A stretch of 64,000 nucleotides of DNA from Candidatus Latescibacterota bacterium (lineage in GTDB: Bacteria; Latescibacterota; UBA2968; UBA8231): positions 1,280,001 through 1,344,000 of the forward strand of contig CBDAOB010000004.1 of assembly GCA_965197905.1 (NCBI GenBank). The letters run 5' to 3'. The notes below the pieces were generated by a model. That model was given only the letters and a program-made list of their open reading frames with translations, made no database searches and was not told the DNA's origin. Below, piece by piece: positions 21,039-40,990 of the stretch (position 1 is the stretch's first letter; each line of letters opens with the position of its first letter). The position numbers and the translations under genes were made by a program.

Positions 21039-21398
21039 GGGGGCGATATGGGTTCGACGGGAATGGCGAAGCCAAGATTGCGTGCCGAGGTCCCCGAAAC
21101 CTCGTTAAACCTTGGGGAAACTTTTAGTTGCCAATAGCGATTACGCTTTGGCTGCCTAAGAATTCTTAGGTAGCCCGCCGGGGCCGATTGAGCCTGCGCG
21201 GCCGGCCCCGACGTCATCTTTAGCAGGCTAGTCTCGGTTCCTGTGTTCGGGGGGGCCGGGGCGAAACTTACTGGACTAGTTCCTTGAGGATCCTGTCAGT
21301 CGGAACCACGGGGGATGAGATTGTAGACTGACTACGCACGTAGGATATCTGGGTAGGATCATTTTCGGACGCGGGTTCAATTCCCGCCGCCTCCACCA
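21039..21398 (+). ncRNA. ssrA: tmRNA; tag (A)ANSDYALAA encoded at 21130-21159
   Basis: 5' GGGGGCG pairs with 3' CGCCTCC-ACCA with a G3:U wobble; T-arm GGTTCAATTCC; tag ORF ending YALAA-stop. Confidence 0.96.
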
Positions 21399-23427
21399 AT
21401 TGTGAAGATACGCAACTCTCTGTTTCTATGGGAGTTGCGTTTTCTTGTTCTGCGCCGACGGCTTGGCGGTACATACTATGTACATAGTTTTCGCCGATTC
21501 TTAGGTGCTCCGCCACTTTGTCGACCGCCTCGGTCAAACGCTCTTCGCGTGTCCTACCGTAGACGTTCATGGTTAACTCAGGAGTAGCGTGACGCGCCTG
21601 GGCCTCCTTGACCGTCACGTCGCCCCGCTCCAAGACCAGATTGATATAGGCCAGTCGGCAGGCGTGGAAGTCCAGCTTTCCCCCAGGTGCGTACTTGGGG
21701 ATATCCGCCGCCTCCAGATCTTTATCCAGGTCACGCGCCGTGTGCGTGGGAACATATAGAAGCGGGTTATCCGGCGTTTCCTGGTGGGCGTCTTTGCGGC
21801 CATAACGACGGTCATAAAGTTGCTTGGCTTCGCCGGTTTTTGCGAACTCACTTAGTCGATCAACGAGCAACGCCGGGATAGAGTGGAATCCGCCCTTTCG
21901 ATTTTTTGTCCAGGCTGCGTCCAGGTGTAGCCCACGGCGTTTAACATCGAGATGGTCGACGGTGAGGTTGCAAAGCTCGTTTGCTCGTAACCCCGACAAG
22001 AATGCGGTCTCGTAGAGGATGCGACGGTACGTGGGCGCAACGTCCAAAAGGCGGTTTATTTCGTCGACGGTCATCGCCCTGCGTTGCGTCAGCGGCGTCG
22101 TGTCAAAGGGAGCCATTGCGGCGAGCGGGTCGTGCCCCAGGTATCCGCGCTTCACACACCAATCGCAGAAGGCCCCCAGAGCCTCCGCATAGTTGGCGAT
22201 CGTCTTGCCGGCCCTCCCCAGCCTCTGCAACTCGCGCAGAGCCTTTTCTACTCTGGGAAGAATACCGGGCATTTCTCCCAATGTCAGGATACCCAAGTTG
22301 TCCTGCCACCATCCGAGATGTCTACGTCGGTTTGCTGCGTGGGTCGGGCTCCAGGGTAAACCGTTTCGCCCACCTTGTGAGTTCCCCCAGGCCAAATATT
22401 CCGATTTGACGTCCTCGACACTCAGGTGGTCGGTTTGGGCGGTATTTTTCTGCTCTTTGCTGATGGTGATATTGCGGCTCCCCGACTTGCATTTTGAAAT
22501 GAGAATGCCCGCATCCTGTAGGTTCGTCCTTACCTCATTAAGACGACGCCCCAAGGCGCTTGGCGACTTCGGCCACATCTTATCTCGGACATCGATTTTC
22601 TGGATTGCCGCCTCCGCCTCCAGCTCATCCAGCAGCGCCGCCGCTTGTCCGTCCCAGTGGCCTTCCTTGTCCATCAAGGCCATGATCGCGGCCGCTACCG
22701 GATGTCCATACACAACCTCATCATTCTGTTCGTCGATGTTTGCCATATACGCGGCCATAAAGCATTCCGGCGAAGAACCAAGGCCGGCAGCGATAGCACA
22801 CCCCCAATTAGCGAAGTCCGCCAAGCGTGGTTTTGAATCAAGCCGCGTGTTGGTCTTGATCGAGATCGCTTTCGACAACGCGTCGAGCATGCCACCCAGT
22901 ATATGCGGGCGCGCCTGGGAAAATTCTGTTTCGAGTCGCTCCTCGTCCCGGCGTTCATTGTTGGCTATGCGATCCAAGCCGATCAATATGGACCTATCCA
23001 GTAGATCTGCTTTGGTCGCCGCGGCGTTAATACCATTCAAAATGATGCAGCGCCGAAAAGAGTAGATGATATCATCGTCGTCGGTGTAAAGTTGGCGTTT
23101 GCTGATACCGTCCCCCGTGCATCCTCGGCATAGCGCATCGGATTGTTGGGACTGAAGCATGTCTACGTTGTCGAAGGGCACCATGTAATGATGGGAGAGA
23201 ATTTGGGCCAACTCGGCCGGGTTTCGGGGAAAACTCAAATTTTCCAGCGACGATGGATCAATCAGTCGGCGCAGCAGCCGCGACATGAATGTTTTCCCAG
23301 ATCCCTGAGGCCCATGGAGCACTAGGATTGGATGGGGGAAGTTGGGGAGCAAACAGAACACCATCCAGGTTTTTAGGCGGTGTAGATCGTGTGGGACATC
23401 CAATGGCGGAATCGCAAACTTCCGCAC
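21268..23427 (-). CDS. Fusion of a P-loop ATPase (primase/helicase C-terminal domain) and a tyrosine integrase; possibly defective
   Basis: N-half GPQGSGKT Walker A; C-half SGLRANEL, DFHACR, ARHATPELTMNVY; frame continues through att into antisense ssrA. Confidence 0.8.
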   Translation of the reverse strand: MRKFAIPPLDVPHDLHRLKTWMVFCLLPNFPHPILVLHGPQGSGKTFMSRLLRRLIDPSSLENLSFPRNPAELAQILSHHYMVPFDNVDMLQSQQSDALCRGCTGDGISKRQLYTDDDDIIYSFRRCIILNGINAAATKADLLDRSILIGLDRIANNERRDEERLETEFSQARPHILGGMLDALSKAISIKTNTRLDSKPRLADFANWGCAIAAGLGSSPECFMAAYMANIDEQNDEVVYGHPVAAAIMALMDKEGHWDGQAAALLDELEAEAAIQKIDVRDKMWPKSPSALGRRLNEVRTNLQDAGILISKCKSGSRNITISKEQKNTAQTDHLSVEDVKSEYLAWGNSQGGRNGLPWSPTHAANRRRHLGWWQDNLGILTLGEMPGILPRVEKALRELQRLGRAGKTIANYAEALGAFCDWCVKRGYLGHDPLAAMAPFDTTPLTQRRAMTVDEINRLLDVAPTYRRILYETAFLSGLRANELCNLTVDHLDVKRRGLHLDAAWTKNRKGGFHSIPALLVDRLSEFAKTGEAKQLYDRRYGRKDAHQETPDNPLLYVPTHTARDLDKDLEAADIPKYAPGGKLDFHACRLAYINLVLERGDVTVKEAQARHATPELTMNVYGRTREERLTEAVDKVAEHLRIGENYVHSMYRQAVGAEQENATPIETESCVSSQLVEAAGIEPASENDPTQISYVRSQSTISSPVVPTDRILKELVQ
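21410..21443 (+). terminator. Island-supplied terminator hairpin after ssrA
   Basis: ACGCAACTCTC...GGGAGTTGCGT then TTT; related stem at 40645-40679. Confidence 0.7.
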
Positions 23428-24475
23428 CGCAGCACTTCATGGTGATCCCCAACGTAAACCTGCGCGTGCGGAACGCGGTGTTGATCATGGAACAGCTTCG
23501 CATGGGAAGCAACCATCTTGGCAAGGCGGGAAGCCTGAGACTCTTTTGCATCACCAGCACCGTCATCCCCGTCTCCGTCAGCAACGCTATCCTCGGTTGG
23601 CTCCCAAGGCTTGGCCTCAGCGAGAATCCGGTCGATGTCGTCACGATTCCACCCTAATCCGTGTACGCCGTCCCAGACATCCCCCGTTTCGGGCAGTGCT
23701 TCGGGAGGCTCGACAATACGGATTGACTTGGCGACGCCTTCCAGGAACCGCCCCACCTGCTCCATATGGCCACGGCCGGCGGTATCGTTGTCGGGCCACA
23801 GAATCGCGTCTTCATTGGCCAAGTAGGCAGTGAGTTCAACGGTCCACCCGCCGGCCCCAAAAGGGTTGGTGGTGGCCCGGAATCCCATAGCCCATAGTGT
23901 GTCAGCCTTAGCCTCCCCCTCCGTGATTACAACCGGACCCTGACCTTTCGTTGTTACGAGATCGTGAAGCCGGTAAGGCAACAACTCAACCCCCTTGCAT
24001 TCCAGATCCAAGCGCCGTTCCCGTCGGGGCGACGGACTGAAAAGTCCTTCCTTCTTCCGTTCTTGCCCGGCTCCTTGCGAACTGTTTGAAATTGCAGATT
24101 GTTGGACTCGTCGGTGTAGCTGAACTCCGCAACGAGCGTTTGCGCTCGATCATTGCTTGGCACGGCGATGCCAAAGTCCTTGATGATTCCTTCCAATACC
24201 ATGGGGAACTGTGCCCGGCAGTCGAGCCCGGTCTGCTGTGCGTAATAGTCGATCGCGTGCCCCCCAGCTTTGCACACCAGACAATAGTGACTACCTGCTT
24301 TTCTTCCCCTAAGAACAAGGTTTCTACTCGGTCTCTGATCATTGTGCGAAAAGCAAATAACATCCGTCGTGTCGCCATTACCCAGATCGGGATGGAAGTG
24401 GGAATAGAAAGGGGTGTAATCTTGACCGAAGTGGTCGAGAATCGCCTTCTTGAGGTCGGGCGTACTGTCGGTCAT
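23373..24475 (-). pseudogene. Frameshifted phage/satellite-type primase (Zn-binding domain 23954-24475, TOPRIM 23373-24011)
   Basis: CFSHNDQRPS...CLVCKAGG Zn finger; VITEGEAKAD and WPDND TOPRIM motifs; overlapping frames that continue into the ATPase frame. Confidence 0.75.
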
Positions 24476-24720
24476 GGCAGTTCGCTTCCATCGGCTCGCT
24501 GATTCCGCACCCCTTGGTCCGCCTGTGCTGAAGTGGATCCTTCGAGCCATTCGGTGATCAGAATCCAGTCGTAAATGACCTTACGCCCCACTTTTAGAAA
24601 TGGAATCTCGCGCCGGCTTGTCTTTTTGCGAATAGTGTTCAAAGCCAGCGGCACCCATTCAGCTAACTCCTCGGCACTCAAAAATCGCTTCGAAGGAACA
24701 CCGCATATCGTGCCAAGCAT
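24472..24720 (-). CDS. Excisionase/AlpA-like helix-turn-helix protein
   Basis: FLSAEELAEW...NTIRKKTSRREIPFLKVGRKVIYD; AAGGAG RBS; stop overlaps the primase start. Confidence 0.8.
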   Translation of the reverse strand: MLGTICGVPSKRFLSAEELAEWVPLALNTIRKKTSRREIPFLKVGRKVIYDWILITEWLEGSTSAQADQGVRNQRADGSELP

Positions 24721-24747
24721 TTCAAAATCTCCTTGGTTGCTGAGCAC

Positions 24748-24782
24748 AAAAAAGGCCCAGGCATTACTGTGTATGCCTGGGC
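24748..24782 (-). terminator. Intrinsic terminator between the activator and xis-like genes
   Basis: GCCCAGGCAT-8nt-ATGCCTGGGC then CTTTTTT on the minus strand. Confidence 0.75.
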
Positions 24783-24786
24783 TTGT

Positions 24787-24802
24787 AGCAAGTGGTATTC
24801 CG
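24787..24802 (-). promoter_or_regulatory. Candidate sigma54 promoter for the xis-primase operon
   Basis: CGGAATACCACTTGCT = GG-N10-GC with a TTGCT -12 box. Confidence 0.45.
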
Positions 24803-24832
24803 AACGACGTAACTATTAGTCGTGAAATATCC

Positions 24833-26299
24833 TTAGGGATCGTGTTCGGGGAGCCGCCCGGCTTCCGAACAGTTTTCCGAATCCCAGCCGGGGATCTCGC
24901 CGTTGGCCTCCAGCACCGTCCAGGCATTGCCGAACTTGGTGCTGGTATCGCTGAGCGTGGACTTGCCGATGCCCAACTCAGCGGCAACCTGGCTTTTCTT
25001 AACGGGTTCGCCGTTCGGGCAGAGCCGTAGTATCGCCCCGAGGACACGGTCCACATGATGGTCATGCACCTTAAGAACCTCAGCCAGATCCCCCTGGCTT
25101 TCTCGGCAAAAGGAGCCAATCTCGTTCCTAATCGTTCTAACGCTCAGACGGTCCTCTTGTCCCCACTGGCGCAATTTTCTCGCAATCTGGAATCGATATT
25201 TGGAAGCCTCCTTGATTCCAGATTGCTGATCCACAAAGTGACGGACAAGGTTGGGTATGTCGGAAACTCGAAAGAGCACGTCAGGAACCTGCACAACATG
25301 TTGGTTGATCCGTTCCAACAAATCCGTTTGGAAACCTTCCAGCGTCGCGAGAGACTGGTTGGAGGTTACAACAATCATTGCACCCGCTCCTGAAATAGGA
25401 TCAACATCGCCAACCTTGGTAAAAGTGCGTTCTTCAAGAACCTGGAGCAGTTTGGGTCGTTGTTTTTCGGCGAGGTAGTTAATGTCGTCGAGTACCAATG
25501 TGCCATTGTTGCTGCACGCCTCGAACCATCCATCCTGATCGTCAGTCGCACCAGTGAAAGCGCCCTTTCTGTGGCCAAAAAGCGCTGATTCGACCAAGTG
25601 TTCGGAAATTGCTGAAACATTAAGTCGGTAAAACCTGCCCTCACGCCCACCCAAATCGTGAATAGCCTTCGCGATGGCGCCCTTCCCTGAACCACGTTCC
25701 CCTTCGATCAGGACGATTGGAGATTCGCCTCCCAATGACAGCTTTGCAATCTGGGCTACGTCGCGGTACAACCCAACCATCGAGAGCGCGTTGCCGACGA
25801 CGCCGAACTGCTGCATTCTCTGGCAAAGACCGTATGCCACTTCATTCGTAAGCCCCAACTCACGCATATAAAAATCCTTGTAGGGGAACGGCTTTTCTGC
25901 AAAATTGCTCCAGCCATCGATCGCTTTCGCCTGGTCGTAGTAGCCTGCCCGCAGGAAACAATCGCGCTGCTCTTCTGGGCCCAAATCACGAACGAGGCGT
26001 TCCAGTTGCTGGAGATCACAAAGCCGGATGATGACGTCTACATCAGGATCGTCTAGTGTAAGTGGTTTGAATTGCGAGAAAGGTTTGATCAACCAATCAA
26101 ACTCGAAGGGCTTGAATAATACCTCCTCGGGCGTCACATCACTATCTTCCATCTTTGAAAACGCCCGTGACAAGAGAGTCGTGAGTTCGACGACGCCCGG
26201 CCCGCCTGGAGCATCCTCCATCTCCCAAATCGGAAGGCCCGTTGGGCGCATCTTCTGCGCGAAGTTTTTGAGGGCGTGCTTCGCGGCTGTCGATTCCAT
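24833..26299 (-). CDS. Sigma54-dependent enhancer-binding AAA+ transcriptional activator
   Basis: GERGSGK Walker A, ESALFGHRKGAFTGA, LVLDDI Walker B, C-terminal HTH; N-terminus is not a recognisable receiver domain. Confidence 0.88.
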   Translation of the reverse strand: MESTAAKHALKNFAQKMRPTGLPIWEMEDAPGGPGVVELTTLLSRAFSKMEDSDVTPEEVLFKPFEFDWLIKPFSQFKPLTLDDPDVDVIIRLCDLQQLERLVRDLGPEEQRDCFLRAGYYDQAKAIDGWSNFAEKPFPYKDFYMRELGLTNEVAYGLCQRMQQFGVVGNALSMVGLYRDVAQIAKLSLGGESPIVLIEGERGSGKGAIAKAIHDLGGREGRFYRLNVSAISEHLVESALFGHRKGAFTGATDDQDGWFEACSNNGTLVLDDINYLAEKQRPKLLQVLEERTFTKVGDVDPISGAGAMIVVTSNQSLATLEGFQTDLLERINQHVVQVPDVLFRVSDIPNLVRHFVDQQSGIKEASKYRFQIARKLRQWGQEDRLSVRTIRNEIGSFCRESQGDLAEVLKVHDHHVDRVLGAILRLCPNGEPVKKSQVAAELGIGKSTLSDTSTKFGNAWTVLEANGEIPGWDSENCSEAGRLPEHDP

Positions 26300-26907
26300 C
26301 TCTCGTATCCTTATGCGGCAAAGGCGGGAAAGTACGGATCCATGCTGGGCACTGGCCAGGACCAGCGATGCTGCACAATTGAACACTTAGGGACTTTTTG
26401 TGCAGGTATTACTAAGGTATATTCTGGGTATGCAGTTGTCCAGAGATGTCCTTGGATGGCTCAGATCGCGGTGTGCAGCAGAAACTTATTCCTAATCTTT
26501 TGTGCTACGCGTTATAAGTCACCGAAAAATGACAACTTAAGACATGCCGAAGAGATGGAAATTAGCCGTTTGCCCCATGCTTGCCCCACAAAAACGGTGT
26601 TGTCTCGTTTTTTCTTCATACCAGATCTTCCCATTCCAGCAGTACCCCACACCGTCCAATTCGACCTGCCATGTAGGGGTTTCCGGCTTCTTCATATCAG
26701 TCTCCGCATGGCCGAAACGTGGGCGAGTAATGTAATGTGTTCCTCCACCAAGCCGCCGTATGATCAAGAAACCAAGTGATCCACCAAGGCCAAGGAGTTC
26801 ACGGAGCTCATGCACCGAACGATAGCGGCGGGGTCGACGGCTTCGGGCTCGCGCCCTTCTCGCCCTCTGTCGGGGGGTGCCGAAAACTTTTTCGACGGAG
26901 AGGATCC

Positions 26908-27891
26908 TTGCGATACATCATCTATGGAGCGGGCGGCATCGGAGGCACGATCGGCGGGCACTTACACCGCGCGGGTCGCCAGGTGGCGCTGGTGGGCAAT
27001 GCCGCCCATGTGGAGTCGATCCGGGCCCGGGGGTTTACCTTCCTGACCGGCGACGGGAGCTATTCTCTGGAGATCCCCGCGTTCGAGACGGCGGGGGGAC
27101 TGGCCCCTTTCCACGACGACGACATCGTCCTGCTTTGCGCCAAATCCCAACACACGGTCCGCTGCATGGGGCAGTTGAAAAACGCCGGCGCACCCCGGTC
27201 GCTCCCTGTCGTATGCTGCCAGAATTCGATCTGGAACGAGGCGGCGGTCACCCGCGTCTTCGACCGGGTCTACGGCGCCGTGATCTCCGTGCGGGCCATC
27301 TTCCTGAAGCCGGGAGAGGTGATCAATCCGGTGTCGGAACGCGCCGGCTATATCGAGGTGGGGTGTTATCCCTCGGGACAGGACGAGGTCTGCGAAGCGG
27401 TGAGCCGCGATCTGTCGGAGGCGAGTTTCTCGGCACACGTCAACGCCGAGGTCATGAAGGCCAAAGGGGCCAAATGCCTGGGCAATCTGGTCAACGCCCT
27501 GCAGGCTATCACCGATGGCAAGGGAGACACGCGAGCCTACTTGGAACAGGTGCAGCGGGAGGCCGAAGCCGTGTGGGCGGCCGCCGGCATCGAATGGGAA
27601 GATCGAGGCTCGTACGGCGAGCGGCGCGCGAGGTCGGGCGAGGTTGCGAAGAAGCCTCCAGGATGTGAAGATGTCAAGGCAGGCGGCTCCTCCTGGCAAA
27701 GCTTGGTGCGAAGCACCGGCTCCATCGAAGCGGAGGAACTGAATGGGGATGTGGTGAAGCTCGGCGCCTATCTTCGAATTCCGGCGCCTTACAATGAACT
27801 CCTCTGGCGGCTGGCAACCGAAATGGCTGCCAATGGCGAACCGCCGGGCAAATATTCGGCCGACGCACTGATGGCGATGATTCCGCAATAG
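26908..27891 (+). CDS. Ketopantoate reductase (ApbA/PanE) family protein
   Basis: IYGAGGIGG, LCAKSQ, CCQN, SSWQSL, ELNG; TTG start after GGAGAGG. Confidence 0.85.
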   Translation: MRYIIYGAGGIGGTIGGHLHRAGRQVALVGNAAHVESIRARGFTFLTGDGSYSLEIPAFETAGGLAPFHDDDIVLLCAKSQHTVRCMGQLKNAGAPRSLPVVCCQNSIWNEAAVTRVFDRVYGAVISVRAIFLKPGEVINPVSERAGYIEVGCYPSGQDEVCEAVSRDLSEASFSAHVNAEVMKAKGAKCLGNLVNALQAITDGKGDTRAYLEQVQREAEAVWAAAGIEWEDRGSYGERRARSGEVAKKPPGCEDVKAGGSSWQSLVRSTGSIEAEELNGDVVKLGAYLRIPAPYNELLWRLATEMAANGEPPGKYSADALMAMIPQ

Positions 27892-28146
27892 AATACCAGC
27901 ATGTCCGCCAAGTTCAAGGTTCAGCGAGTCCTGGCGCCCATGGTTGATGGTCTTGCGCCCTGCGGTTCCAGAGGAGGAATAGCCCTGAAGGCCGGTGGGC
28001 GCAGTCAGATCGGCGTAATCGTCGCCACATCGAATATCAGCGCAGTTTTCGCCACGGCGCTGCTCGCGCCTTATATCACCCGCTTCGCGGTTCGCAAACC
28101 GGCATGACATTGTGCGCCATAGAAGCAAGGGGAGAAGAGTCACGGC

Positions 28147-28483
28147 ATGAAGAAACGAAACTCTTCGTCGGATGCGCTTGTGTCGGTCCACGGTGGACAC
28201 AGCAGAGAATTCGGCGATGCAGATGAGTCCGCCCTTGAAGAAATCGTATGCGCCTACATTCACAAGGGCTTCAAATGGGTGGGTATTACCGAACATATCC
28301 CGCCCGTTTCAGCGGACTTCCTGTGGCCTTGGGACATTGAGAAGGGTCACACGGCACCAGTCGATGCTACGTCGGTTCGAAGAATATTTTTCCGTCGCTC
28401 GCAAGCTCCAGGTGGAGTATCGGGATTCCATTCACATGTTAGTTGAGGCCAGACAATTTTTGGAAAATGCGCCACAATTATGA
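28147..28483 (+). pseudogene. Truncated, frameshifted PHP-domain (histidinol phosphatase-like) fragment
   Basis: SVHGGHS, GITEH motifs; continues in another frame and stops after about 100 codons. Confidence 0.65.
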
Positions 28484-28540
28484 CGTTGGACCGATGAAAG
28501 CAGGAAGGGACAGAGCCTCCGAGCGTCTTCAGTAAACATT

Positions 28541-29302
28541 ATGCGGGAAAGTCAGAAACAATTTAAGAGGCCCCCAAAAAGACATCAGCCGAGGGGGCTT
28601 TCGATTCTCTATGAAGATCGAGATATCCTGGTCGTGGATAAGGTGAGTGGTCTTTTGACAGTGAGTAATGAGAAAGTCAGATGCAATACAGCTTATTATC
28701 TCTTGAATGATTACGTGCGCAAAGGGAATCAGAAATCAAGGCACCGGGTATTTATCGTGCATCGTCTGGATAGAGATACTTCCGGTGTTATCGTGTTTTC
28801 CAAGAATGAGAATGCCAAGCGTTATCTTCAGGAAGAGTGGCAGGGATTTCAAAAGAAGTACTATGCCCTCGTACATGGAACGTTACCGGAGAAGGAGGGT
28901 GTAATTACTTCCTATCTTGCAGAAACCCGTGCTCATAAGATGTATTCTGTTGGTGATCCGAAAGAGGGTAAGCTTGCTAAGACCGGGTATAGAGTTCTGA
29001 GAGAATCACCAAAGTACAGTCTTCTGGAAATAGATCTGTTGACCGGTAGGAAGAACCAGATCCGGGTCCATCTTTCGGACAAGGGCTGTCCTGTGGCTGG
29101 CGACAAAAAGTATGGAGTCAAGGAAAAGGGCATCAAAAGGCTCACACTTCATGCGGCCTCCATTACAATAGTTCATCCGTATTCAAAAGAGAAGATGACC
29201 TTCACAACAAAGGTTCCCGCCTATTTCGAATCACTTATAGAGGGGTCTAAAGGGGCACACAAAAGCTCAGGAAGAAGTGGACCCCAGAATTCGGACAGCT
29301 AG
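28541..29302 (+). CDS. RluA-family RNA pseudouridine synthase
   Basis: VHRLDRDTSG, TGRKNQIRVH, GDKKYG, LHA; visibly more AT-rich than its flanks. Confidence 0.92.
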   Translation: MRESQKQFKRPPKRHQPRGLSILYEDRDILVVDKVSGLLTVSNEKVRCNTAYYLLNDYVRKGNQKSRHRVFIVHRLDRDTSGVIVFSKNENAKRYLQEEWQGFQKKYYALVHGTLPEKEGVITSYLAETRAHKMYSVGDPKEGKLAKTGYRVLRESPKYSLLEIDLLTGRKNQIRVHLSDKGCPVAGDKKYGVKEKGIKRLTLHAASITIVHPYSKEKMTFTTKVPAYFESLIEGSKGAHKSSGRSGPQNSDS

Positions 29303-29609
29303 GTTAGGTGGGCCCAACAGCTGATGCGGAGGATATGGATTTATGACGGGTATCCCTTGGGCATCCGTTCCGTGCCAGACGACACGGCTGATTCCATTCG
29401 GACATCTGACCGGCTTGCCAGTCGCACGATGCGCGGCCAGCGGATAGAGATGTTGATATCCCCCAGATCCCATTCAGTCGGCATGTTGATCTCTTCGGTG
29501 ATCTCACCGGAATCGGTCATCGAAACGACCGGATCGGGCCCGCGCGGGGCGCTCCTGACTCGTGAGACCCATGATCATTTCTAAATCCAAGTACCTGTCT
29601 GGTCTCAAT

Positions 29610-29704
29610 CCGTATTCGGTGAAGCCGATGAGAGCGCGGACAAAGAAGGTAAGCCGGTCGAACTCCTCACTTCGGCGAAAAGAGTCGTCGAACTCCCGTT
29701 GATC
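29610..29704 (-). pseudogene. About 95-bp C-terminal fragment of a paralogue of the 63257-64000 gene
   Basis: Translates REFDDSFRRSEEFDRLTFFVRALIGFTEYG versus KEFDTRFQDVRNFDAWSFFVRALVGFTEYG. Confidence 0.65.
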
Positions 29705-29739
29705 TGAACCGCGAAGCGGATGCCAAAGGACAAGGGCCT

Positions 29740-31528: not shown

Positions 31529-33508
31529 TTACCACGTGTGTACGATGTGGCCCTTTACCGGGAACCAGATCATATCCACCCACCTCGAAAACACTACTGC
31601 GAGCACATAGCCGATGGCCATCCCGTAGAAAAAGGGCTTCCCCCCCAGGTAGGCCCGCACTCCCCCGTAACGCAAAAGCACCAGCTTGACGGCCCACACC
31701 AGAGACAGACTCAACCAGTAGACCCACACCCCGGTCGTGAACTGAAAGGCCAGCCCCATAGGGTGCAGCGGAAACCAGAGAAAGCGCGCGCGCAAAAACG
31801 CGAGCCCGGCCGCCTCGAAAAACCCGAAGAGCCATACGCCCCACTTCCCCCCATCCGCAACCGTGCGATTGTACATAGCCAGGACCATCTGATCAAAGGT
31901 GGACGTATCACCTGCCGTGAAGACCATGAACCCTCCTTCATAGCCCCGTTCAACGGTCACTACCGCGATCGCGAAAAAACCCACCGGAAAGGCTACCACC
32001 ACCACCGCCGTCACCCACCAGGGCTGCTCCCGCAGCGAAAAGATGCGCAGGTGATGGACCATCGCCGGCCACGCCGGCATGCGGATCGTGCCGAAGAAGG
32101 CCCGGCTGGCAAAGAGCTTGAAGGCGATCAGGCTGCGCGGTGACAGGTGGATCGAACCCACCAGATCAAAGATGAAGGTCTCGCCCTTCATGTGCGAATA
32201 GTTGGGGAGGAGATAGGCAAAGCCGGTGGCCGCCATGAGCTTGGCCGTGACGAAATAGACCAGCGTCATCAGCAGGAACGCGCCTGTGGCCAGGGGCAGG
32301 CTCATCCCCAGGCCCACGCCCCAGTAGATCACATAGGCCGCCGACAGCACCAGACCGGCCAGGGCAAAGCGATAGTGGACGACCTGGCGGCGCTCCCCTT
32401 CCCCGCTGCGCACCTGGTGCCACACCTGCCGCAAATGCCTGCGCGCCAGCCAGATCGACCACAGGGCCAGAAAGATCAGGGCCCCGTAGCTCTCCATGTC
32501 GAGGATCTCCGACCCTACGATCGGCTGGCCACCCATTCCCACCGAAAACCCCACCCGAATTAGGGCCCAGTCCTTGACTACGGCCAGCCAGTAAAAGACG
32601 ATCAGGCTGCCCAGAATGTCCAGCGGGCACAGGTAGGCCACGGCAAACACCATGGGCATCAGCCGCACATATATATTGTCGGAAAGGAGGCCGCGCATGG
32701 GGATCACATGAGGCCGAAAGAAGAGATCCAGCGGCGGCAGGCCCGGGGTGAAATAGGTGACTATTCTGTAGATTAGAGGCAGCAAAACCACCCCCACGCC
32801 AAGCCAGAACAGACCCGAGCGGAAGATCTCGGGCAGGCGCCGCGGCCCATCGAAGCCCCGCGTCAGGTCCAGCGGCAGCTGCGCCAGGGGAAAGGTGAGC
32901 TTCTCGACCTCCACCCACTGGCGCTGGAACAATACGAACAGACAGAAGCCAAAGACCACCAGGCCCATCGACACTCCCAGCCACTGGCCGATCGTTCCCA
33001 GCCAGGCCAGCCATGGCACGGGCGCGCCCTCTTCGGCGCCGAACCAGAATCTGCCGATCGCCTGGGGCGAGGCCGGAACGAACACATGCCAGGGCAGCAA
33101 ATCGAAGAAGGTCTCGGCCCACTGGTTTTCGGGCGTGGCAAAGTAGGACGGCGCCGACACAATCGTGACCCAGTCGTTGATCCAGCCACTGCCGGGCATG
33201 GTGCCCACGATCCAGGTCATGGAGAAGATGGTCAGCAATTCACCCCGGCGCAGGGCCCTTTGCGGGAAGAGCCGTTTGAGACCGGTATTGACAAAGAGCC
33301 ACAGCACAAAGGGCGCGAAACCCGCTATGGTAAAATTGGCCCTGGCACTGATATCCATCCAGTAGAACGTGGCAACAATGGTCAGGACCCCCAGGACCAG
33401 CGCCCGCAGCGTGATGAAAGGCGGCGCTTCGCCAGCCTCTTCTCCGGGGAGAGGGATCTGGCGTCTCCCGGGCGGAGGATCCCGGACTTCTGCTGCTGTG
33501 ATCTGCAT
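31529..33508 (-). CDS. Polytopic membrane protein, DUF6785/DUF6784-like (putative transporter)
   Basis: ITLRALVLG, RQWVEVEKLTFPLAQLP, WFPLHPMG, RYGG...KPFFYG; many TM segments. Confidence 0.75.
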   Translation of the reverse strand: MQITAAEVRDPPPGRRQIPLPGEEAGEAPPFITLRALVLGVLTIVATFYWMDISARANFTIAGFAPFVLWLFVNTGLKRLFPQRALRRGELLTIFSMTWIVGTMPGSGWINDWVTIVSAPSYFATPENQWAETFFDLLPWHVFVPASPQAIGRFWFGAEEGAPVPWLAWLGTIGQWLGVSMGLVVFGFCLFVLFQRQWVEVEKLTFPLAQLPLDLTRGFDGPRRLPEIFRSGLFWLGVGVVLLPLIYRIVTYFTPGLPPLDLFFRPHVIPMRGLLSDNIYVRLMPMVFAVAYLCPLDILGSLIVFYWLAVVKDWALIRVGFSVGMGGQPIVGSEILDMESYGALIFLALWSIWLARRHLRQVWHQVRSGEGERRQVVHYRFALAGLVLSAAYVIYWGVGLGMSLPLATGAFLLMTLVYFVTAKLMAATGFAYLLPNYSHMKGETFIFDLVGSIHLSPRSLIAFKLFASRAFFGTIRMPAWPAMVHHLRIFSLREQPWWVTAVVVVAFPVGFFAIAVVTVERGYEGGFMVFTAGDTSTFDQMVLAMYNRTVADGGKWGVWLFGFFEAAGLAFLRARFLWFPLHPMGLAFQFTTGVWVYWLSLSLVWAVKLVLLRYGGVRAYLGGKPFFYGMAIGYVLAVVFSRWVDMIWFPVKGHIVHTW

Positions 33509-33543
33509 CGAGGGAGAACTGTTGTCTATAAGAGGTAGGCCTG

Positions 33544-33591
33544 GCGTATAGGAAAGATAAACGGCTTGCGTATAGGAAAGGTGAACGGTTT
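33544..33591. repeat. Imperfect 24-bp tandem repeat upstream of the membrane protein gene
   Basis: GCGTATAGGAAAGATAAACGGCTT / GCGTATAGGAAAGGTGAACGGTTT. Confidence 0.7.
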
Positions 33592-33781
33592 TATCGTTGG
33601 TCTGGTCAATGGGCTGAAGCCTTCGGGGTGAGCCCGTAGGGCCGTGGGGACGGTGCGGATGGGCTGCGGCGAGTCGCGTGTCTTGGGGAAAGTGCGGTCT
33701 GATCGGTTGTCGGGGCGTGGTGCGAGCGGGAGTCGGCGCGCAAGGTGGCGCTCAACGGCCTCTTCCCCTGCACCATGCCAC

Positions 33782-33877
33782 AACAGAAAAGGAACTCCCC
33801 TCAACTCTTGCTCTACTGAAAGGAGGTGATTCCGAAAAAGCAGAGCAGCGGAGCCGAAGTGAAGCTCCTTTTCTGTT
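33782..33877 (-). other. Long imperfect hairpin whose loop carries ATCACCTCCTTTC (anti-SD) on the mRNA strand
   Basis: Outer arms AACAGAAAAGGA/TCCTTTTCTGTT, inner arms TGCTCTACT/AGCAGAGCA, loop GAAAGGAGGTGAT on the + strand at 33818-33830. Confidence 0.6.
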
Positions 33878-33884
33878 ATCGGGC

Positions 33885-35771
33885 CTATTTGAGCAGGGTC
33901 ATCGAGTGCGTGGCCATGAAGTCGCCGGCCTGCATCCGATAGAAGTACACCCCGCTCGAGACCAGCTCGCCGCTCTGATCGCGCGCATCCCACGTGGTCT
34001 TGTAGGCGCCCGCGCTCAGGGACTCGTCCGCCAGGCTGGCGATCAGCTGACCAGCGGTGTTGTACACGCCGATCCTAACGTGTTCGTCAACCGGCAGGGA
34101 GAACTCAATGGTGGTCTCCGGGTTGAACGGGTTGGGATAGGCCTCGCCCAGCGAGTAGCTGTCGGGGGTGCCGGCACTCTCGACTTCTTCAGCTACAGTC
34201 GTCACGTCGACGCCCAGGCTGCGGGACTCTACATCCAAGGGGATGTACATCAACGCGCTCGGACCCGCTTTCCCTTCTTCGGGCCTACCAAATTCCCTGA
34301 TTTTCATATTATAATGCCCGCTGGTGTACGCGCCGTCGTACGGCCCATCCTCGTTGAGGATGGTGAGATACCAGCCGAGAATGGGTGTGAAGGGACCGAG
34401 GGTGGGCGACATAATGACGTCCATAAGGCCAGCGCCGTCGCGCCCATACCCGCTAAAGCGCGCGCCCCGCTCGTTGTTGTAAGAACCCATGAAGAGCATT
34501 TCCCCGTGGGCTTGCGTCTGCATGTTGGTGGAAGTGGACCCGCCGCGTGGCATACCGAGCGCGGCCGCTGTCTGGTCGGAGATCTTGTCCCCCCTGTAAT
34601 CGCCATTGCGATTCACCCACAGGAGATCGCCCTGGTGATTCAGGCGCACGATTTCGGGAGCGCCAAAGGAAGAGGCCCAGACCCCGTGGGCATTGACCGC
34701 GATATTCCCCGGCCCCGCGGCATTGGTTACCTCGTTGCCCTCCTCATCGACGCTGGTGCTGACGTAGATGTCGGTCAGGTCGAACTCGCGGGTGATCTCA
34801 CCCGAATTCTTGTCCCACGACTGGATCGAGGGGAACGGCACCTCACCCTTGCTATCGTGCGCCGCGTACATGATGCCCAGAGGCGCCCAGGGTCGGACCA
34901 ACCTTATTGCGTCCTCCCTATTGGGGGCAAAACCGTTTTCGCCAAACGAGGTGTCCCGGTCCCACGACTTGGCCGAACGATTGATGATCATCTTGTAGAT
35001 CCCGCCGAACTCGCCGGACTGATTGGTCGTCCAGAAGATCTCGGTGCTCTCGTCGTCAAGGGTCAGGCCGCCCCTGGTCCGCACCCCTGCGAAACCGTAC
35101 ACGTGGTTGTAGTTCCACCGCTCCCAGGCATTCGGGTTGGCAATGTAGTCCGTGCCCATGGTGCCGTGGATAACATCACCGGCCGTGTACGCCGCCGTAC
35201 TCGATGCGGCCCACTCGCGGTCGTATTCCTGCATCCAGATGTCGGCCGGGTCGAAGCGCGTGTCGATGAGATTGTAGGAATAACCCGACTGGGCGCCGGG
35301 TCCAGCCAGGACCGATAGGTCGCGGTTGTTGACCGCGACCAGGTCGAATTCGTACTGACCGGGGCCTGCGGCATTGCCCTCCCAGTCCTTTCCGTCCCAG
35401 GTGATGGTGTTACGACCCGCGTTACAGGTCTTCCCTGGTGTGAGGGCCACGAATTTGTCCTGCGGTTCCAGTCGCAGCCAGGCGCCAACAGGCCCGGTCA
35501 CTCCGGTCTCGGTGTTGCCCTTCTCGTATATGGCCACCCAGGCCGTGGCGCGCTGGTTGAGGGTGAAGGGGATGCCCACCGAGCCGCTACCGTCCCAGGC
35601 CACGTCCTGGACGGTGATTGCCATGGGATTGAACACCCCGGAAACCTCGGGCTGGGCAAAGATGCCATCCCACTCGCCCAGGGAAGGAAAGGTCTGTTCT
35701 TCGGCCCACACGGCGCCCGTGGCCAGGACGGCCAGGGCCAATCCGATCAAGCTTAAGCGAAGATTTCTCAT
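33885..35771 (-). CDS. Secreted protein with an N-terminal FlgD-Ig-like domain and a C-terminal FlgD-Ig/T9SS-type sorting domain
   Basis: Signal peptide MRNLRLSLIGLALAVLATGAVWA; ITWDGKD; AYPNPFNPETTIEF...WDARDQSGELVSSGVYFYRMQAG...MTLLK; AAGGAG RBS. Confidence 0.85.
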   Translation of the reverse strand: MRNLRLSLIGLALAVLATGAVWAEEQTFPSLGEWDGIFAQPEVSGVFNPMAITVQDVAWDGSGSVGIPFTLNQRATAWVAIYEKGNTETGVTGPVGAWLRLEPQDKFVALTPGKTCNAGRNTITWDGKDWEGNAAGPGQYEFDLVAVNNRDLSVLAGPGAQSGYSYNLIDTRFDPADIWMQEYDREWAASSTAAYTAGDVIHGTMGTDYIANPNAWERWNYNHVYGFAGVRTRGGLTLDDESTEIFWTTNQSGEFGGIYKMIINRSAKSWDRDTSFGENGFAPNREDAIRLVRPWAPLGIMYAAHDSKGEVPFPSIQSWDKNSGEITREFDLTDIYVSTSVDEEGNEVTNAAGPGNIAVNAHGVWASSFGAPEIVRLNHQGDLLWVNRNGDYRGDKISDQTAAALGMPRGGSTSTNMQTQAHGEMLFMGSYNNERGARFSGYGRDGAGLMDVIMSPTLGPFTPILGWYLTILNEDGPYDGAYTSGHYNMKIREFGRPEEGKAGPSALMYIPLDVESRSLGVDVTTVAEEVESAGTPDSYSLGEAYPNPFNPETTIEFSLPVDEHVRIGVYNTAGQLIASLADESLSAGAYKTTWDARDQSGELVSSGVYFYRMQAGDFMATHSMTLLK

Positions 35772-35846
35772 GGTTCTCCTTATCTCCTTGAAAGCGCCGG
35801 TCAAGCCGGCAGAGTGTGTGAATGCAAGTTTCATACGTTGAAGGTG

Positions 35847-35944
<98 letters not shown>

Positions 35945-36086
35945 AATAAAATTCCACAGAGATTCGTTTTAATCTAAGCTCTTTAGAAACAGGGACTTTA
36001 TGCACGTTATTTGATTTTCGAAGACCGCGCGCTCAACTTACATATACCCGATTAAAAGAGGTAAGCATTATGCTTACCTTTGTCAA
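35945..36086 (-). promoter_or_regulatory. rrn-like promoter and leader with a boxA-like element
   Basis: TTGACA (36081-36086)-N17-TACCTC; perfect IR AGGTAAGCAT-T-ATGCTTACCT (36059-36079); GGTCTTCGAAAA boxA-like motif (36015-36026); AT-rich leader. Confidence 0.6.
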
Positions 36087-36360
36087 CGCGAATACTCGTC
36101 CACAAGGCTAGGCAGAGGGGTGAATGGGTCTAACCTCCTGACAAAGGGATGACTTCTGGTGCGCCAGAATCGGGAGGAAGTCTAAGCTCTACTAGATTGG
36201 TGGGTTCTGCGGCGTTGTTCGGAGAAACGTCGTTCTCATGAGATATAGGGGTCTAGTTTCGAGTATTAACCACCCGAGCCAATACCATCTTATTGTCTCT
36301 ACGAATTACCCTAAAAAGTCGATATGCCCTCTATCTCCTGTGATGACCATAACTGTAATC

Positions 36361-36561
36361 ATGTATATTGCCATGAACCGTTTCAGGATCGCCCTCGGCA
36401 GCGAGGTGATCTTCGAAGATCTCTGGCGCCAGCGCGAATCTTATCTCGACGAAACACCTGGCTTTCGCGAGTTCCACCTCTTGCGCGGCTCCACCCACGA
36501 AGACCACACCCTCTATGCATCCCATTCGGTCTGGGATTCGGCCGCTGCTTTTGAGCGGTGA
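36361..36561 (+). pseudogene. Truncated ABM/IsdG-like monooxygenase
   Basis: MYIAMNRFRI...FEDLWRQRESYLDETPGFREFHLLRG...YASHSVWDS; stops early. Confidence 0.7.
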
Positions 36562-36591
36562 TTGCGTCAGGTTGCATTTGCGCTTCTTCGT

Positions 36592-38079
36592 TCAGGTCAC
36601 GCGAAAGGAAAACAGCCTGGCGTCCCTCATGTAGAATCTCAGGCGCACCGGTTGCGACTGAGCCCCCAGCTTCTGCCCGCTTTTCCATCCCACCTTGTGA
36701 TCCAGACCATCCGCCGTGATGGTTGAGCAATCGGCTCGCGAAAAGCCCGCAATCGGTTCACCGTATATCGTCAAAACCTCGACCTCCAACGCGCCCCTTG
36801 CAGCATTCGCATTTATCCGCAGCTCGTCACCACCCTCGAAACGGAACGGATTTGTCGTCAGGGAACCTTCTTCTTCCTGGGCGCTGATCGAGGCGAACCC
36901 GTCCAGCCGCAGCGTGGCCATTCCGAGGGCGTCGCCGATCAGCGTCTGGCCGTTTCGTTCCGTGCCCAGCAGGTCGTTAACGCCGGCGTGAGGTATGTTC
37001 GAGCCACGATAATAGAGCCAGATCTCCTCCTCCTGGACCACGGCATCGTCCAGATAGATTCGCTTCTCGTCCCAGGTGTTGGGGTTGCCCACCATAAAAA
37101 GATGGCGGTTGCCGACGCGAAGCCATTCTCTGCCGTCGCGGCTGAAGGTGAGCTGCACATCGAGGGTGTAGTTGAACCCCTCCATGATCCGTTCGTCGCC
37201 AGTGAACTCGTGGTAGACGTTGAGAAAGCCGATATAACACCCTTCGTAGGGCAGCACCCGCATGTAATAGAATTCGGTGCCATCGCCATCCCGTTCGTCT
37301 GGAGAGATCACTTCCTCGATATCCGTCCAGTTCAGAAAATCGATGCTTTCGCTGCGGCCGATACGCCGGGTGGGAAACGCCGACAAATCGTAGGGCACGC
37401 CCTTCTTGGGCCAGTGGCGCATGACGTGCCGGCCGTTGGGACGCACGTACATCACGTAGCGACCGATCTTTTCGTCCCAGAACGCCCACTGGGAGCCGTC
37501 TCCGGTCGGTGAAAGCACCGGATTGGCTTCGTTGGCGGTCCAGGTCAGTCCGTCGGGCGAGAATGCCACCCCAATGCCACGCTGCGTCCGATCTCCTACA
37601 TAGTAGATCATCTTGTAGCGCCGTTGATCGTCCTCATCGTGATTGTCCTTGAGCACCGTCTTGTCATAGTTAAATCCGTCGGGGAGCCGCACCAGATTGT
37701 TGTCGGTTGATCCCTTGTAATCCACCAAGCCCAGCTTTGGACGCTCGAAGTGGATGCCGTCCTCGGATACCGCGTAACACATGTCCGCTGGGGTCTGGGG
37801 CGCTACGGCGTACCAGAGTTTGTAGATCTTCTCCCCTCGGTCGTACACCAGATCGCAGTAGTGGAATCGCTCTCCCTCCCACGGTTCTTCCATGACGAAT
37901 ACGGGGTTGTCTTTCCGTTTCTCCGGCCGGTGTATAAAGCGCGAGAGGTTGTCCATGATGGCGATGTGGTAGTCGTCCACAAAGAGCTGGCGTTCGCGGC
38001 CGACAGTGCGGATCGGGGGCAATCGGTCAAGTGGGCTGTCGCTGGTGAGGGTGACCCCTCTGGCTGCGTCCGTGGCCAT
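36592..38079 (-). CDS. Five-bladed beta-propeller glycoside hydrolase-like protein
   Basis: QLFVDD, AVSEDGIHFERP, AFSPDGLTW, LRLDGFAS, C-terminal LRFYMRDARLFSF. Confidence 0.75.
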   Translation of the reverse strand: MATDAARGVTLTSDSPLDRLPPIRTVGRERQLFVDDYHIAIMDNLSRFIHRPEKRKDNPVFVMEEPWEGERFHYCDLVYDRGEKIYKLWYAVAPQTPADMCYAVSEDGIHFERPKLGLVDYKGSTDNNLVRLPDGFNYDKTVLKDNHDEDDQRRYKMIYYVGDRTQRGIGVAFSPDGLTWTANEANPVLSPTGDGSQWAFWDEKIGRYVMYVRPNGRHVMRHWPKKGVPYDLSAFPTRRIGRSESIDFLNWTDIEEVISPDERDGDGTEFYYMRVLPYEGCYIGFLNVYHEFTGDERIMEGFNYTLDVQLTFSRDGREWLRVGNRHLFMVGNPNTWDEKRIYLDDAVVQEEEIWLYYRGSNIPHAGVNDLLGTERNGQTLIGDALGMATLRLDGFASISAQEEEGSLTTNPFRFEGGDELRINANAARGALEVEVLTIYGEPIAGFSRADCSTITADGLDHKVGWKSGQKLGAQSQPVRLRFYMRDARLFSFRVT

Positions 38080-38099
38080 GGTCCTCCGTTCGTGTTTTA

Positions 38100-38440
38100 C
38101 GGGTATTCCCCATATCAAAATCAGTTGGGGTTTGGATTGAACTCGACTCTGTTTGATAATAAGGAATGGCCGTCCACTTTGCTCCACGGACAAATTTCTG
38201 CATCAAGAACGGCCTTGTTCTTCCGAATTATCACGATCTCCATGTTCACATTCACCGATTAGAGACAGGTATCCATTGCTTTACTTTAAAAAGTGAAGTT
38301 CTAAACAGAAGAACAACGTAAACGCTTGATTCGGGCCAAGATCTCGGCAAATAACGTCTGGTCTATCGCCACCGCGGCCATCTGAAACGTGGTATACCTA
38401 TTGTGCCTGACCACCTTCGCGCCGATCTTGATCAGCCTTG
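38100..38440 (-). mobile_element. IS1380-family remnant (transposase C-terminus plus right end)
   Basis: RLIKIGAKVVRHNRYTTFQMAAVA...LFAEILARIKRLR; terminal ATGGGGAATACCCG resembles IS1380-family ends. Confidence 0.55.
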
Positions 38441-38576
38441 CCGGGGAGGAGCAGTACGCCTTCGCGGCGATTCTGACGACCAATTTGTCTAGCCAAACAG
38501 TGAGCGTCGGTACCGCGCCGACGCTGCGCGGCTGCCAACTCGGCAAGGTTTCTCTACCCAACAGAATAGGAGCTAC

Positions 38577-39557
38577 ATGCAAGACCGCTTTCGTGATCGG
38601 GACACATTGCAGCTCTATTTCGACGATATCGCCGATTCCAAACCGCTCTCTCGCGAGCGCGAAGTGGAACTTTCGGCCCGCATTCAGGACGGCGACATGC
38701 AGGCTCGAGAGGAATTGGTGCACGCCAATCTTCGCTTCGTGATTGACATTGCTAAAAACTATCAGAATCGCGGTTTGCCAATGGAGGATCTAATCAGTGC
38801 GGGAAATGTCGGGCTGATGACCGCCGCTGATAGATTTGACGGCACCAGGGGGTTCAAATTCATCTCGTATGCCGTGTGGTGGATAAGGCAGTCCATTCTG
38901 CAGACGATTGCCGAACAGGCCCGCACCGTGCGGTTGCCGATGAATAAGGTGAGCCTGCTCAAGGACATTTCGCAAACCTCTCGGCGTCTGGGGCAGGGGC
39001 GCGAAGCGGAACCCGGCATCGAGGAGATCGCCGCGGAGTTAGAGGCGTCCGCGGAGGAGGTGCTCGAAACCATGCTCAGTGCTCGCGCCGTTAGCTCGCT
39101 GGACGAATCCTTCGACGAGGATGACGAACGCAATCTGTTGAACACATTGGCGGACACCACGCAGGTTAATCCGGATGCGGACGTCCTGTATGAATCGGCC
39201 AAAGACCAGTTGGAGAGCGTACTCGACAGTTTGGATCAGCGCGAGTTGCGGATAATCAGACTCTACTACGGTTTGGATGGCGACGAGGCCTTAACCCTGG
39301 AACAGATCGGCGACCTCATGGGCGTGACCCGCGAGCGCGTGCGACAGATCAAGGAACGGGCGCTCAGTCGTCTGCGCCTTCCGTCCCGCCATCGGGTCTT
39401 GCGTGCCCTTGCCGAAGATCTAACCGATGAGGTCGGCGTAGCCCCGGAGCGGGGGAGCGCTTACCCATCTCTCCGCTCCTCCAAAACGCCGAGGTCAATA
39501 CCGCAGTGCCGTTTCCTTCTAACGTACATGTCGCCCGCGAAGGTTCAGAGTAGGTAG
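38577..39557 (+). CDS. RpoD/RpoS-like sigma-70 factor lacking region 1.1
   Basis: ANLRFV, DLISAGNVGL, GFKFISYAVWWIRQSI, TLEQIGDLMGVTRERVRQIKERAL. Confidence 0.92.
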   Translation: MQDRFRDRDTLQLYFDDIADSKPLSREREVELSARIQDGDMQAREELVHANLRFVIDIAKNYQNRGLPMEDLISAGNVGLMTAADRFDGTRGFKFISYAVWWIRQSILQTIAEQARTVRLPMNKVSLLKDISQTSRRLGQGREAEPGIEEIAAELEASAEEVLETMLSARAVSSLDESFDEDDERNLLNTLADTTQVNPDADVLYESAKDQLESVLDSLDQRELRIIRLYYGLDGDEALTLEQIGDLMGVTRERVRQIKERALSRLRLPSRHRVLRALAEDLTDEVGVAPERGSAYPSLRSSKTPRSIPQCRFLLTYMSPAKVQSR

Positions 39558-39845
39558 CGTCATTTCGGGATGACTCTGGACAAAAGGAACCCGCCGTCTT
39601 CAAACGGCATAGAGCGGACGGAGTCTGAAGCCGCTGCCTTACAGGACTAACTGCGCTTGACCCGGGAAGAGGTCGGGGCATCGGATCAGTTGGCGGTGGG
39701 CCAATGAACCGTCTACTAGTCTGAGAATCTGGGTCTGGGCCAACGTGGATGGTTAGCGAAAAGCAGAGGTGACCTATCCACCCACATTAATCTGCTGCTC
39801 AGCAATATTGATCTGCACGTTCACGCACATCAGCTTGGGCAGCTG

Positions 39846-40205
39846 TTAACCAGCATTGACCGCTTCGTCCGAGCCACGTAAAAACTCCGCCTCAATCCTT
39901 CTATGCTCCAACCAATCCATGTAGTCCTTGGCCGCGGGTGGGACATCCGGCGTCGCATACTCGACATTGGTGGCATCGACTCTTTGCTCAACCTGGCGCG
40001 GGAATAGATCACGGAATATTTGGAAGAAGGCCTTCGGATCTTCGTCTCTAAGCCGATCAAGCGCCTCCTGCCCTCCATTCTCGAAGGACGTGATAAAAGC
40101 ATCCTTCAGGCTGGTAAACCTGTTTTTCGCGCCTTGGGGCCGTCCTCCTTGGCCTTTTAGGAAGCGCCCCTTCTGATCCCGTTGTGAGGTCATCTTCGTA
40201 CCCAT
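39846..40205 (-). CDS. Phage-type small protein resembling DUF5681/small terminase N-termini
   Basis: RDQKGRFLKGQGGRPQGAKNR N-terminal motif; located at the island end. Confidence 0.5.
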   Translation of the reverse strand: MGTKMTSQRDQKGRFLKGQGGRPQGAKNRFTSLKDAFITSFENGGQEALDRLRDEDPKAFFQIFRDLFPRQVEQRVDATNVEYATPDVPPAAKDYMDWLEHRRIEAEFLRGSDEAVNAG

Positions 40206-40324
40206 ACTGAGCGATCAGGGCTACCGATGACAGGTGTTGTGGGGCGGCGTCCTTCAGGATCTGGAGGAGCACCTTCTTGGGCGTAATTCGGACCAAATCT
40301 CTCAACTCACTCATAGCCCCTGCC

Positions 40325-40990
40325 TTACACATTGTCGCCTCGAATGACAGCCAGGATGCGCGCTTTGTCCGGTGCCGATAAGCGATCCCATGCTTCCACG
40401 ACCTCGGCCAGATCTTCGGGTGGATTCTCGTACATACATGGTACATACTTTTGCCGCTCAGTTGTGTCTGGCTTGTGTTCGGGATTTGCACGGATTTGTT
40501 TTTTGGGACCTTGAGCCGGATTCGCTATCTTCTTTTTCTGTAATGGTTTTGCAGAGTTCTGCCCGGCTTCTATAGAAGAAGTGTTAGATCCCACAGTACC
40601 TTCGGAACGGGGTTCAATTCCCGCCGCCTCCACCAATTCAGAGGATACGCAATCCTTTCCACGCGAAGGGGTTGCGTATTCGTGTTCTGCCCCGACGGCG
40701 ATTCGGTGCACGCTGGGTGCACACTGAAGGTCATCTGTCGTCTGAATCTTAGACGCAACCCGCTCGACGGCATCAGCCAATCGGTCCTCGCGAGTGCGCC
40801 CGTAGACATTGAGGGTCATTTCCGGTGTCGCATGCCGCGCCAAGGTTTGGGCTTCTTTCACGCTGACGCCCGCCTCCAGGACGAAATTGATGTAGGCTAG
40901 CCGGCAAGCGTGGAAGTCAATCTTCCCTCCCGGTCCATGTTTGTCTATTCCTGCGGCTCGCAGATCCACATCTAGGTCCCCGGCGGCGTG
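40325..40990 (-). pseudogene. C-terminal remnant of a second, related tyrosine integrase reading through att
   Basis: PGGKIDFHACRLAYIN...EAQTLARHATPEMTLNVYGRTRE, closely similar to the first integrase; N-terminal part replaced by unrelated sequence. Confidence 0.8.

Follow-up and report, generated by a model that had tools for sequence, protein, structure and literature searches.

Within a 64,000-nucleotide (nt) stretch of a Candidatus Latescibacterota bacterium genome (GenBank assembly GCA_965197905.1, contig CBDAOB010000004.1, positions 1,280,001 to 1,344,000; hereafter the window, whose own coordinates are used throughout), a 19.2-kb element (element 1) is integrated in the transfer-messenger RNA (tmRNA) gene, with its attachment (att) site inside the reading frame of its tyrosine integrase, and recombination exchanges the C-terminus of that enzyme. 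In the integrated state, the integrase ends in a short, host-derived run of amino acids (aa) read antisense from the tmRNA gene; after excision, it would end in a 94-aa element-encoded tail with a conserved two-helix domain, the coding sequence of which now lies at the far end of the element. Among related elements, the two separated parts of this fusion gene agree in frame in 33 of 34 matched pairs, and the excised integrase–tail fusion is almost certainly kept by selection.

The tmRNA gene that serves as the integration target (21039–21398, plus strand; called by ARAGORN, with the tag ANSDYALAA) ends in the 29-nt sequence that is repeated as the att core. One copy (21373–21401) forms the left junction of element 1, within the frame of integrase 1; a second, exact copy (40610–40638) forms both the right junction of element 1 and the left junction of a second element (element 2); and a third, 15-nt copy (48571–48585) is likely the right junction of element 2, with no further copy of the core 15-mer found beyond these three sites in a whole-genome search. 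As a preliminary description of the window had stated, both integrase frames run through the core, which they read as LVEAAGIEP. The integrase 1 open reading frame (ORF; 21268–23427, minus strand, 719 aa) reaches this motif at residue 677 and continues for 34 aa (21268–21372, minus strand), an unconserved end read antisense from the tmRNA gene, which the ORF overlaps by 131 nt. At the far end, the motif recurs in a second ORF (40325–41212, minus strand) and is followed by the 94-aa tail (40325–40609, minus strand), composed of a polar linker of ~60 aa and a terminal domain, the conserved 32-aa two-helix part of which (40325–40423, minus strand) is supported by AlphaFold2 helices, the ratio of non-synonymous to synonymous substitution rates (dN/dS) and cluster counts. 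This tail is presently fused to a remnant of integrase 2, and excision would by computation transfer it to integrase 1 to give a protein of 779 aa; here too, the earlier account of both ends held. The tail of element 2 is itself absent, with a stop four codons past the core at 48571–48585.

The tail is assigned to element 1 because the same arm-type-like direct repeat (GTACATA twice, with 11-nt spacing) occurs at both ends of that element, at 21469–21486 on the left (copies at 21469 and 21480) and at 40430–40447 on the right, inside the tail frame (copies at 40430 and 40441), whereas the left end of element 2 carries a different arm-like repeat (GTGCAC twice, 40706–40722; copies at 40706 and 40717). 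The 11-nt-spaced repeats are presumably arm sites of the integrase. Among 14 pairs from the closer clade, cognate left and right arm regions were more alike than non-cognate ones (mean 15.7 versus 12.6 of 20), a likeness reached in 0 of 100,000 shuffles.

To place this arrangement among related integrases, we used the best 119 of 894 homologues, among which the closest named ones belong to Latescibacterota, Planctomycetota and neighbouring phyla. Motif patterns assigned the antisense reading of a transfer RNA (tRNA) or tmRNA gene to the three frames in 61, 22 and 16 of these proteins, with 20 left without assignment, many of them truncated. A DNA scan of 160 loci found an opposite-strand tRNA or tmRNA gene after the integrase in 71, and in 68 of these the integrase ORF reaches it, rather than stopping before att, a point that the preliminary description had raised. 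The target-reaching ORFs used all three frames (32/24/11) and 11 types of target (tmRNA in 37), and stops in the stretch up to the target occurred in 3 of the 71 loci in the integrase frame versus 67 and 64 in the other two. The host-derived ends extend 9–83 aa inside the target gene (median 20) and are unconserved. Within the window's own family, the tail was found in 22 and the integrase in 20 of 76 genomes, with both in 15. At one further locus (L091; G187:C1:1093977-1096403), two members of this integrase family are opposed tail to tail, and no tRNA was called in the interval.

The decisive evidence for selection comes from the matching of frames between the two ends of each element. Candidate pairs were defined as a tail and an integrase on the same contig and strand, with the tail upstream; an att core of 18–81 nt was identified in 34 of 38 candidates, and 33 of the 34 matched ends join in frame without a stop, in line with the open attP-side tail (attP being the att site of the circle) on which the preliminary reading depended. 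Nine rows were the window itself or had been added after the frame was known (two motif-located tails, one inner tandem element and five stretches, the last being the only ones among 15 more, on a 20-kb scale, to contain an integrase as well as a target), and with these nine removed all remaining pairs were in frame (25 of 25). For one tandem (G495), the non-cognate cross pairing, which is out of frame, was left out of the table and the cognate pairing, which is in frame, was entered instead. In pairs anchored at the antisense T-loop, integrase and tail frames agreed in 27 of 27 (frames 13/9/5), compared with a mean of 10.2 and a maximum of 22 in 200,000 shuffles. These matches hold across integrase–tail distances of 4–70 kb and spacers on either side of the core that differ by hundreds of bases, and the excised form was the longer one in all 33 in-frame pairs (94 versus 34 aa in the window).

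One inherited frame does not explain this matching, because frame labels were unclustered on the integrase tree (18 changes versus 18.7 when shuffled, on a quick maximum-likelihood tree of 34 integrases); the frame at att has changed many times, with the far end following. As a control, distinct junctions between an integrase and an adjacent tail (19, mostly tandem, as judged by their unlike arms) were in frame in 9 cases, 6 of these open, which is about chance. Within one tandem array, elements agree with their own tails, in frames that differ from one element to the next, and cross pairing is out of frame. The preliminary description had proposed that tandem integration hands each integrase its neighbour's tail: such a fusion does exist in the window, but the control indicates that it is incidental, and its recipient there is a remnant.

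The tail domain is both widespread and conserved. A profile built from 24 tails matched 3,698 clusters at E ≤ 0.001, and the domain occurs in at least four deep integrase clades. No Pfam, PHROGs or NCBIfam name was found for it: Pfam searches of 108 tails returned no family in more than two members, and PHROGs and NCBIfam profile searches gave nothing credible. It had no match in 50,697 phage records, and viral contigs held it at only three loci; the best ESM Atlas score (0.88) was to unnamed Planctomycetota clusters and serves as a lead only. Natural integrase–tail fusions were found in five cases (P0065, L015, L046, L047 and L183), and a weak search that used the tail to look for longer proteins found none among 136 candidates. 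Stops between the T-loop and the domain tryptophan occurred in 4 of 76 tails in the domain frame versus 61 and 72 of 76 in the other two frames. In 34 non-overlapping pairs of 62–97% identity drawn from 109 tails, dN/dS was 0.34 in the domain frame and 0.46–2.14 in the other five, mismatches by codon position were 201/123/322, and the linker gave 0.62 (seven pairs only). The two-helix domain is under purifying selection.

AlphaFold2 modelled two helices in the window's tail (residues 65–74 and 79–92, at a predicted local distance difference test score (pLDDT) of ≥90) and the linker at low confidence, such that the tail is predicted to be a helical hairpin on a disordered linker. The sole sequence lead among solved structures was the controller protein C.Csp231I, residues 61–96 of which aligned with the tail profile at a weak E of 0.02, the Leu, Trp, Leu and Ile residues falling at matching intervals. 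This match covers the C-terminal hairpin of C.Csp231I, the last two helices of which (6 and 7) interleave and form 75% of the dimer interface (according to the description in PMC3115060); unlike the tail, that hairpin is a fixed part of an XRE regulator, directly on the helix–turn–helix (HTH), and the two may not be homologous. Fold searches with the tail gave Z ≤ 3.2, with the best matches mostly small dimerization or oligomerization hairpins (for example, the C-terminal domains of TP901-1 CI and CapH); C.Csp231I was not among these matches, the wide fold search having covered representatives only.

The direct precedent for the exchange is Mx8, a phage of Myxococcus xanthus, rather than the mycobacteriophage BPs repressor to which the preliminary description pointed; in Mx8, attP lies within the tyrosine integrase gene and integration replaces 112 aa by 13, leaving a less active enzyme (as summarized in passages of PMC4701971 and PMC6070905); we confirmed this layout in record AF396866. 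As in Mx8, the int frame in the family studied here crosses attP after the catalytic domain (in the window, the core at residue 677 lies downstream of the catalytic Tyr motif at 621–624) and runs into tRNA antisense sequence, and an element-encoded end of ~100 aa is swapped for a short host-encoded one. By analogy, the free circle would encode the integrase followed by a long linker and the conserved two-helix domain, and insertion would swap this tail for the short, unconserved tRNA or tmRNA antisense run. The domain likely dimerizes, a property suggested by the weak match to C.Csp231I, and self-association would aid the building of the attP complex, with the circle's enzyme likely the efficient integrating form. 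The inserted state would keep a weaker enzyme; if Mx8 is a guide, this truncated form, with all catalytic residues, may be less active and excise with the aid of the element's excisionase-like protein, after which the integrase gene would be whole again. We infer that tail exchange controls directionality or activity, and we lean towards an Mx8-type switch in which the circle form is self-associating and integration-competent and insertion removes the domain.

Other effects of the exchange can be envisaged. The frame and selection data show that the fusion matters, not the sign of its effect, and the fused tail might instead restrain or redirect the enzyme, either through contact with another partner (the excisionase-like protein, the arm-binding domain of the integrase itself or the primase) or by blocking re-excision. 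A hydrophobic domain with few conserved basic residues, as the tail has, would suit any protein contact of this kind; however, the only structural leads are homo-oligomer hairpins, and the presence of the domain in several deep integrase clades makes a self-contained module likelier than a partner-specific one, which renders restraint or redirection rather unlikely. The preliminary description had suggested that the exchange may control integrase stability, with the repressor of mycobacteriophage BPs as its precedent; in this reading, a degradation signal on one of the ends would make integrase half-life depend on integration. In BPs, attP lies in the repressor gene 33 and integration shortens the C-terminus of the protein (PMC4557955), as happens here; the last residue is non-polar in 28 of 68 integrated ends, and an unfolded end would be open to protease trimming. 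An ssrA-like tag as the means of such a switch was not borne out, with none of 107 tails and none of 68 integrated ends finishing in AA, and conservation falls at buried positions of the hairpin, at least 18 residues ahead of the stop, rather than on the last residues, which are unconserved. We regard altered stability as improbable.

Control at the level of RNA would act through the integrated int messenger RNA, which is antisense to an abundant tRNA or tmRNA and might be destroyed or stalled, with loss of the tail a side effect. The 131-nt antisense overlap in the window and the 68 of 71 relatives that read into a target gene are what such control would use, but in at least 4 of the 34 matched pairs (L255, L259, L261 and L070) the element enters its target in sense orientation, and here too the tail is in frame, and retention of a domain beyond att is left unexplained; we consider this reading still less probable than altered stability. 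Finally, the tail might be a stand-alone small protein begun at an NTG codon in the att core, or a frame held open by constraints on DNA sites, with the fusion incidental. Antisense CCA does supply a start codon in the most frequent frame, gene callers report proteins of this type (30 of 150 begin at an att-like motif) and one tail in the window's genome belongs to an island without an integrase at its left end. Yet 37 of 76 tails use the two frames that lack this NTG codon, a start codon with a ribosome-binding-like motif was present in only 7 of 76 linkers, and neither version predicts the frame agreement in 27 of 27 pairs whose integrase lies 4–70 kb away, such that a stand-alone or site-constrained tail is largely refuted and very improbable.

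Several observations weigh against the Mx8-type switch or parts of it. Three of the 71 integrases stop short of the target gene, 4 of the 38 candidate pairs gave no core and one matched pair (G354:C5) is out of frame. The C.Csp231I match and the fold-search scores may reflect a mere common two-helix shape. With an excisionase-like gene present on the elements, directionality can be explained without the tail, and because the Mx8 tail is not homologous, the effect measured in Mx8 need not transfer. Integrase 1 of the window is itself damaged. Among the joints listed from contigs of four sequencing runs, none corresponded to attP or to an empty site, which is no evidence of absence because contigs drop rare forms.

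The family also differs from Mx8 in other ways. The two tails are not homologous (Mx8 Int scores of −2.1 and −2.7 bits with the two tail profiles), the domain here is a defined two-helix one that recurs in thousands of clusters and several integrase clades, the frame at att is free to change provided both ends change together, and the elements are primase-bearing islands rather than a described phage. BPs differs in that its repressor is split and sheds an ssrA-like degron, with the short form active, whereas here an integrase exchanges a folded domain and has no AA end. In archaeal suicidal integrases (SSV1, pTN3 and pT26-2), an att site also lies within the integrase gene (PMC8371274), but that gene is cut before the catalytic domain into int(N) and int(C), whereas here all catalytic motifs are on the N-terminal side of att. 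Streptococcal integrative and conjugative elements that target rumA likewise have att in the integrase gene, with C-terminal length and sequence changing on integration (PMC4701971); their enzymes are serine recombinases, their target is a protein gene and the passages covered describe no conserved tail domain. Islander makes provision for integrase genes that span attP, naming Mx8 and SSV in its relevant passages, and the passages of Integrase-On-Demand that were covered do not treat tail exchange. Exchange of this kind was described as rare, in 'very few integrative elements' (PMC4701971, in its passage on the subject), and a mainly open-access literature search, which did not extend to supplements or primary Mx8 papers, found no description of this integrase family or tail domain. 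What is new is a family-wide variant, with a conserved domain, of a known but rarely described att-in-int switch.

Evidence for function was taken from relatives because both window integrases are damaged. The core-binding and catalytic part of integrase 1 (21373–22437, minus strand; PF00589 at E 4 × 10−7, above the cut-off, with support from alignment and motifs) retains all five tyrosine-integrase motifs (R, K, HxxR, H and Y). Features that the preliminary description had not mentioned include a two-aa deletion before the ARH motif, where both residues are present in 117 of the 119 homologues, and the loss of the N-terminal ~65 aa (the first ~65 aligned columns), likely the arm-binding part, in whose place an in-frame P-loop helicase piece (22450–23427, minus strand; weak primase PHROG matches) is fused. 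This fusion likely arose by an internal deletion, because four related loci have helicase and integrase as separate genes, with the helicase upstream. Assembly error as the source of the damage was ruled out by three independent contigs, gap-free and within one to two letters. The integrase 2 remnant (40610–41002, minus strand; a C-terminal stretch of 135 aa with 63% identity to integrase 1), in frame with the element 1 tail, has only the last three motifs and lacks SGLR and TKNR, which carry the catalytic Arg and Lys. The switch in the window is thus likely a relic that would need an integrase in trans.

Other genes of the element include an 82-aa excisionase-like HTH protein (24472–24720, minus strand; HTH_17 at E 0.003 and TIGR01764 at E 3 × 10−5, under the cut-off), a candidate directionality factor, and primase pieces in different frames (23373–24550, minus strand; toprim-like at 23373–24011 and a CHC2 zinc finger at 23954–24550). 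Primase letters were identical in independent contigs, and the primase–helicase region (23373–24550 and 22450–23427) is spread over three frames on which the contigs agree, reflecting either decay or programmed frameshifts. An element-derived hairpin 3′ of the tmRNA gene, within the integrase extension (21405–21446, plus strand; −20.1 kcal/mol, followed by a U-rich run), is terminator-like and may act as a terminator. The island also holds a sigma-70 gene (38577–39557), with a close paralogue on contig C5; contigs from three runs show an additional base after 39450, so the unusual C-terminus of this protein could reflect either a window error or an allele. Run X6 yielded a 3.6-kb contig that follows element 1 from the core (21373) on, preceded by 223 nt of different flank, and element 1 may occupy another position, or an array, in another strain.

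Tails were also found apart from the window. A second tail in the same genome (L002; G000:C4:512461-512759), 75% identical to that of the window and likewise carrying its arm repeat, ends a 24-kb island inserted in tRNA-Pro (C4:488406-488483) whose left end has no integrase; this element may be decayed or non-autonomous and have changed target. On contig C2 of that genome (L003:5726-7390), a large serine recombinase likewise reads into tRNA-Met antisense, with a divergent tail copy on the opposite strand (L003:12856-13176) that is duplicated on contig C1. At three loci (L283, L284 and L285; G150:C206, G121:C181 and G150:C47), two to three tails are separated by 1.6–2.8 kb that contain little or no integrase, arrays that we interpret as tandem islands shrunk to their ends.

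Together, these results indicate that tail exchange is the rule in a broad integrase family of Latescibacterota, Planctomycetota and neighbouring phyla, with frame changes at one element end matched kilobases away providing strong evidence of selection. The family offers a direct test of whether the integrase C-terminus sets activity or direction, the tail is a marker for the far ends of islands, and a hypothetical family of 3,698 clusters gains an identity; for engineering, integrases taken from integrated genomes should be treated with caution, as they come without a domain that the natural integrating form would carry. It is conceivable, with the chances a little short of even, that one portable dimerization domain is the DNA-switched directionality module of several distant tyrosine integrase clades, joined to the enzyme by recombination in the circle and taken off in the chromosome. 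If so, thousands of 'hypothetical proteins' beside tRNA fragments would be orphan integrase C-termini, and integrases annotated in or mined from integrated genomes of these phyla would systematically be the truncated, weaker isoform.

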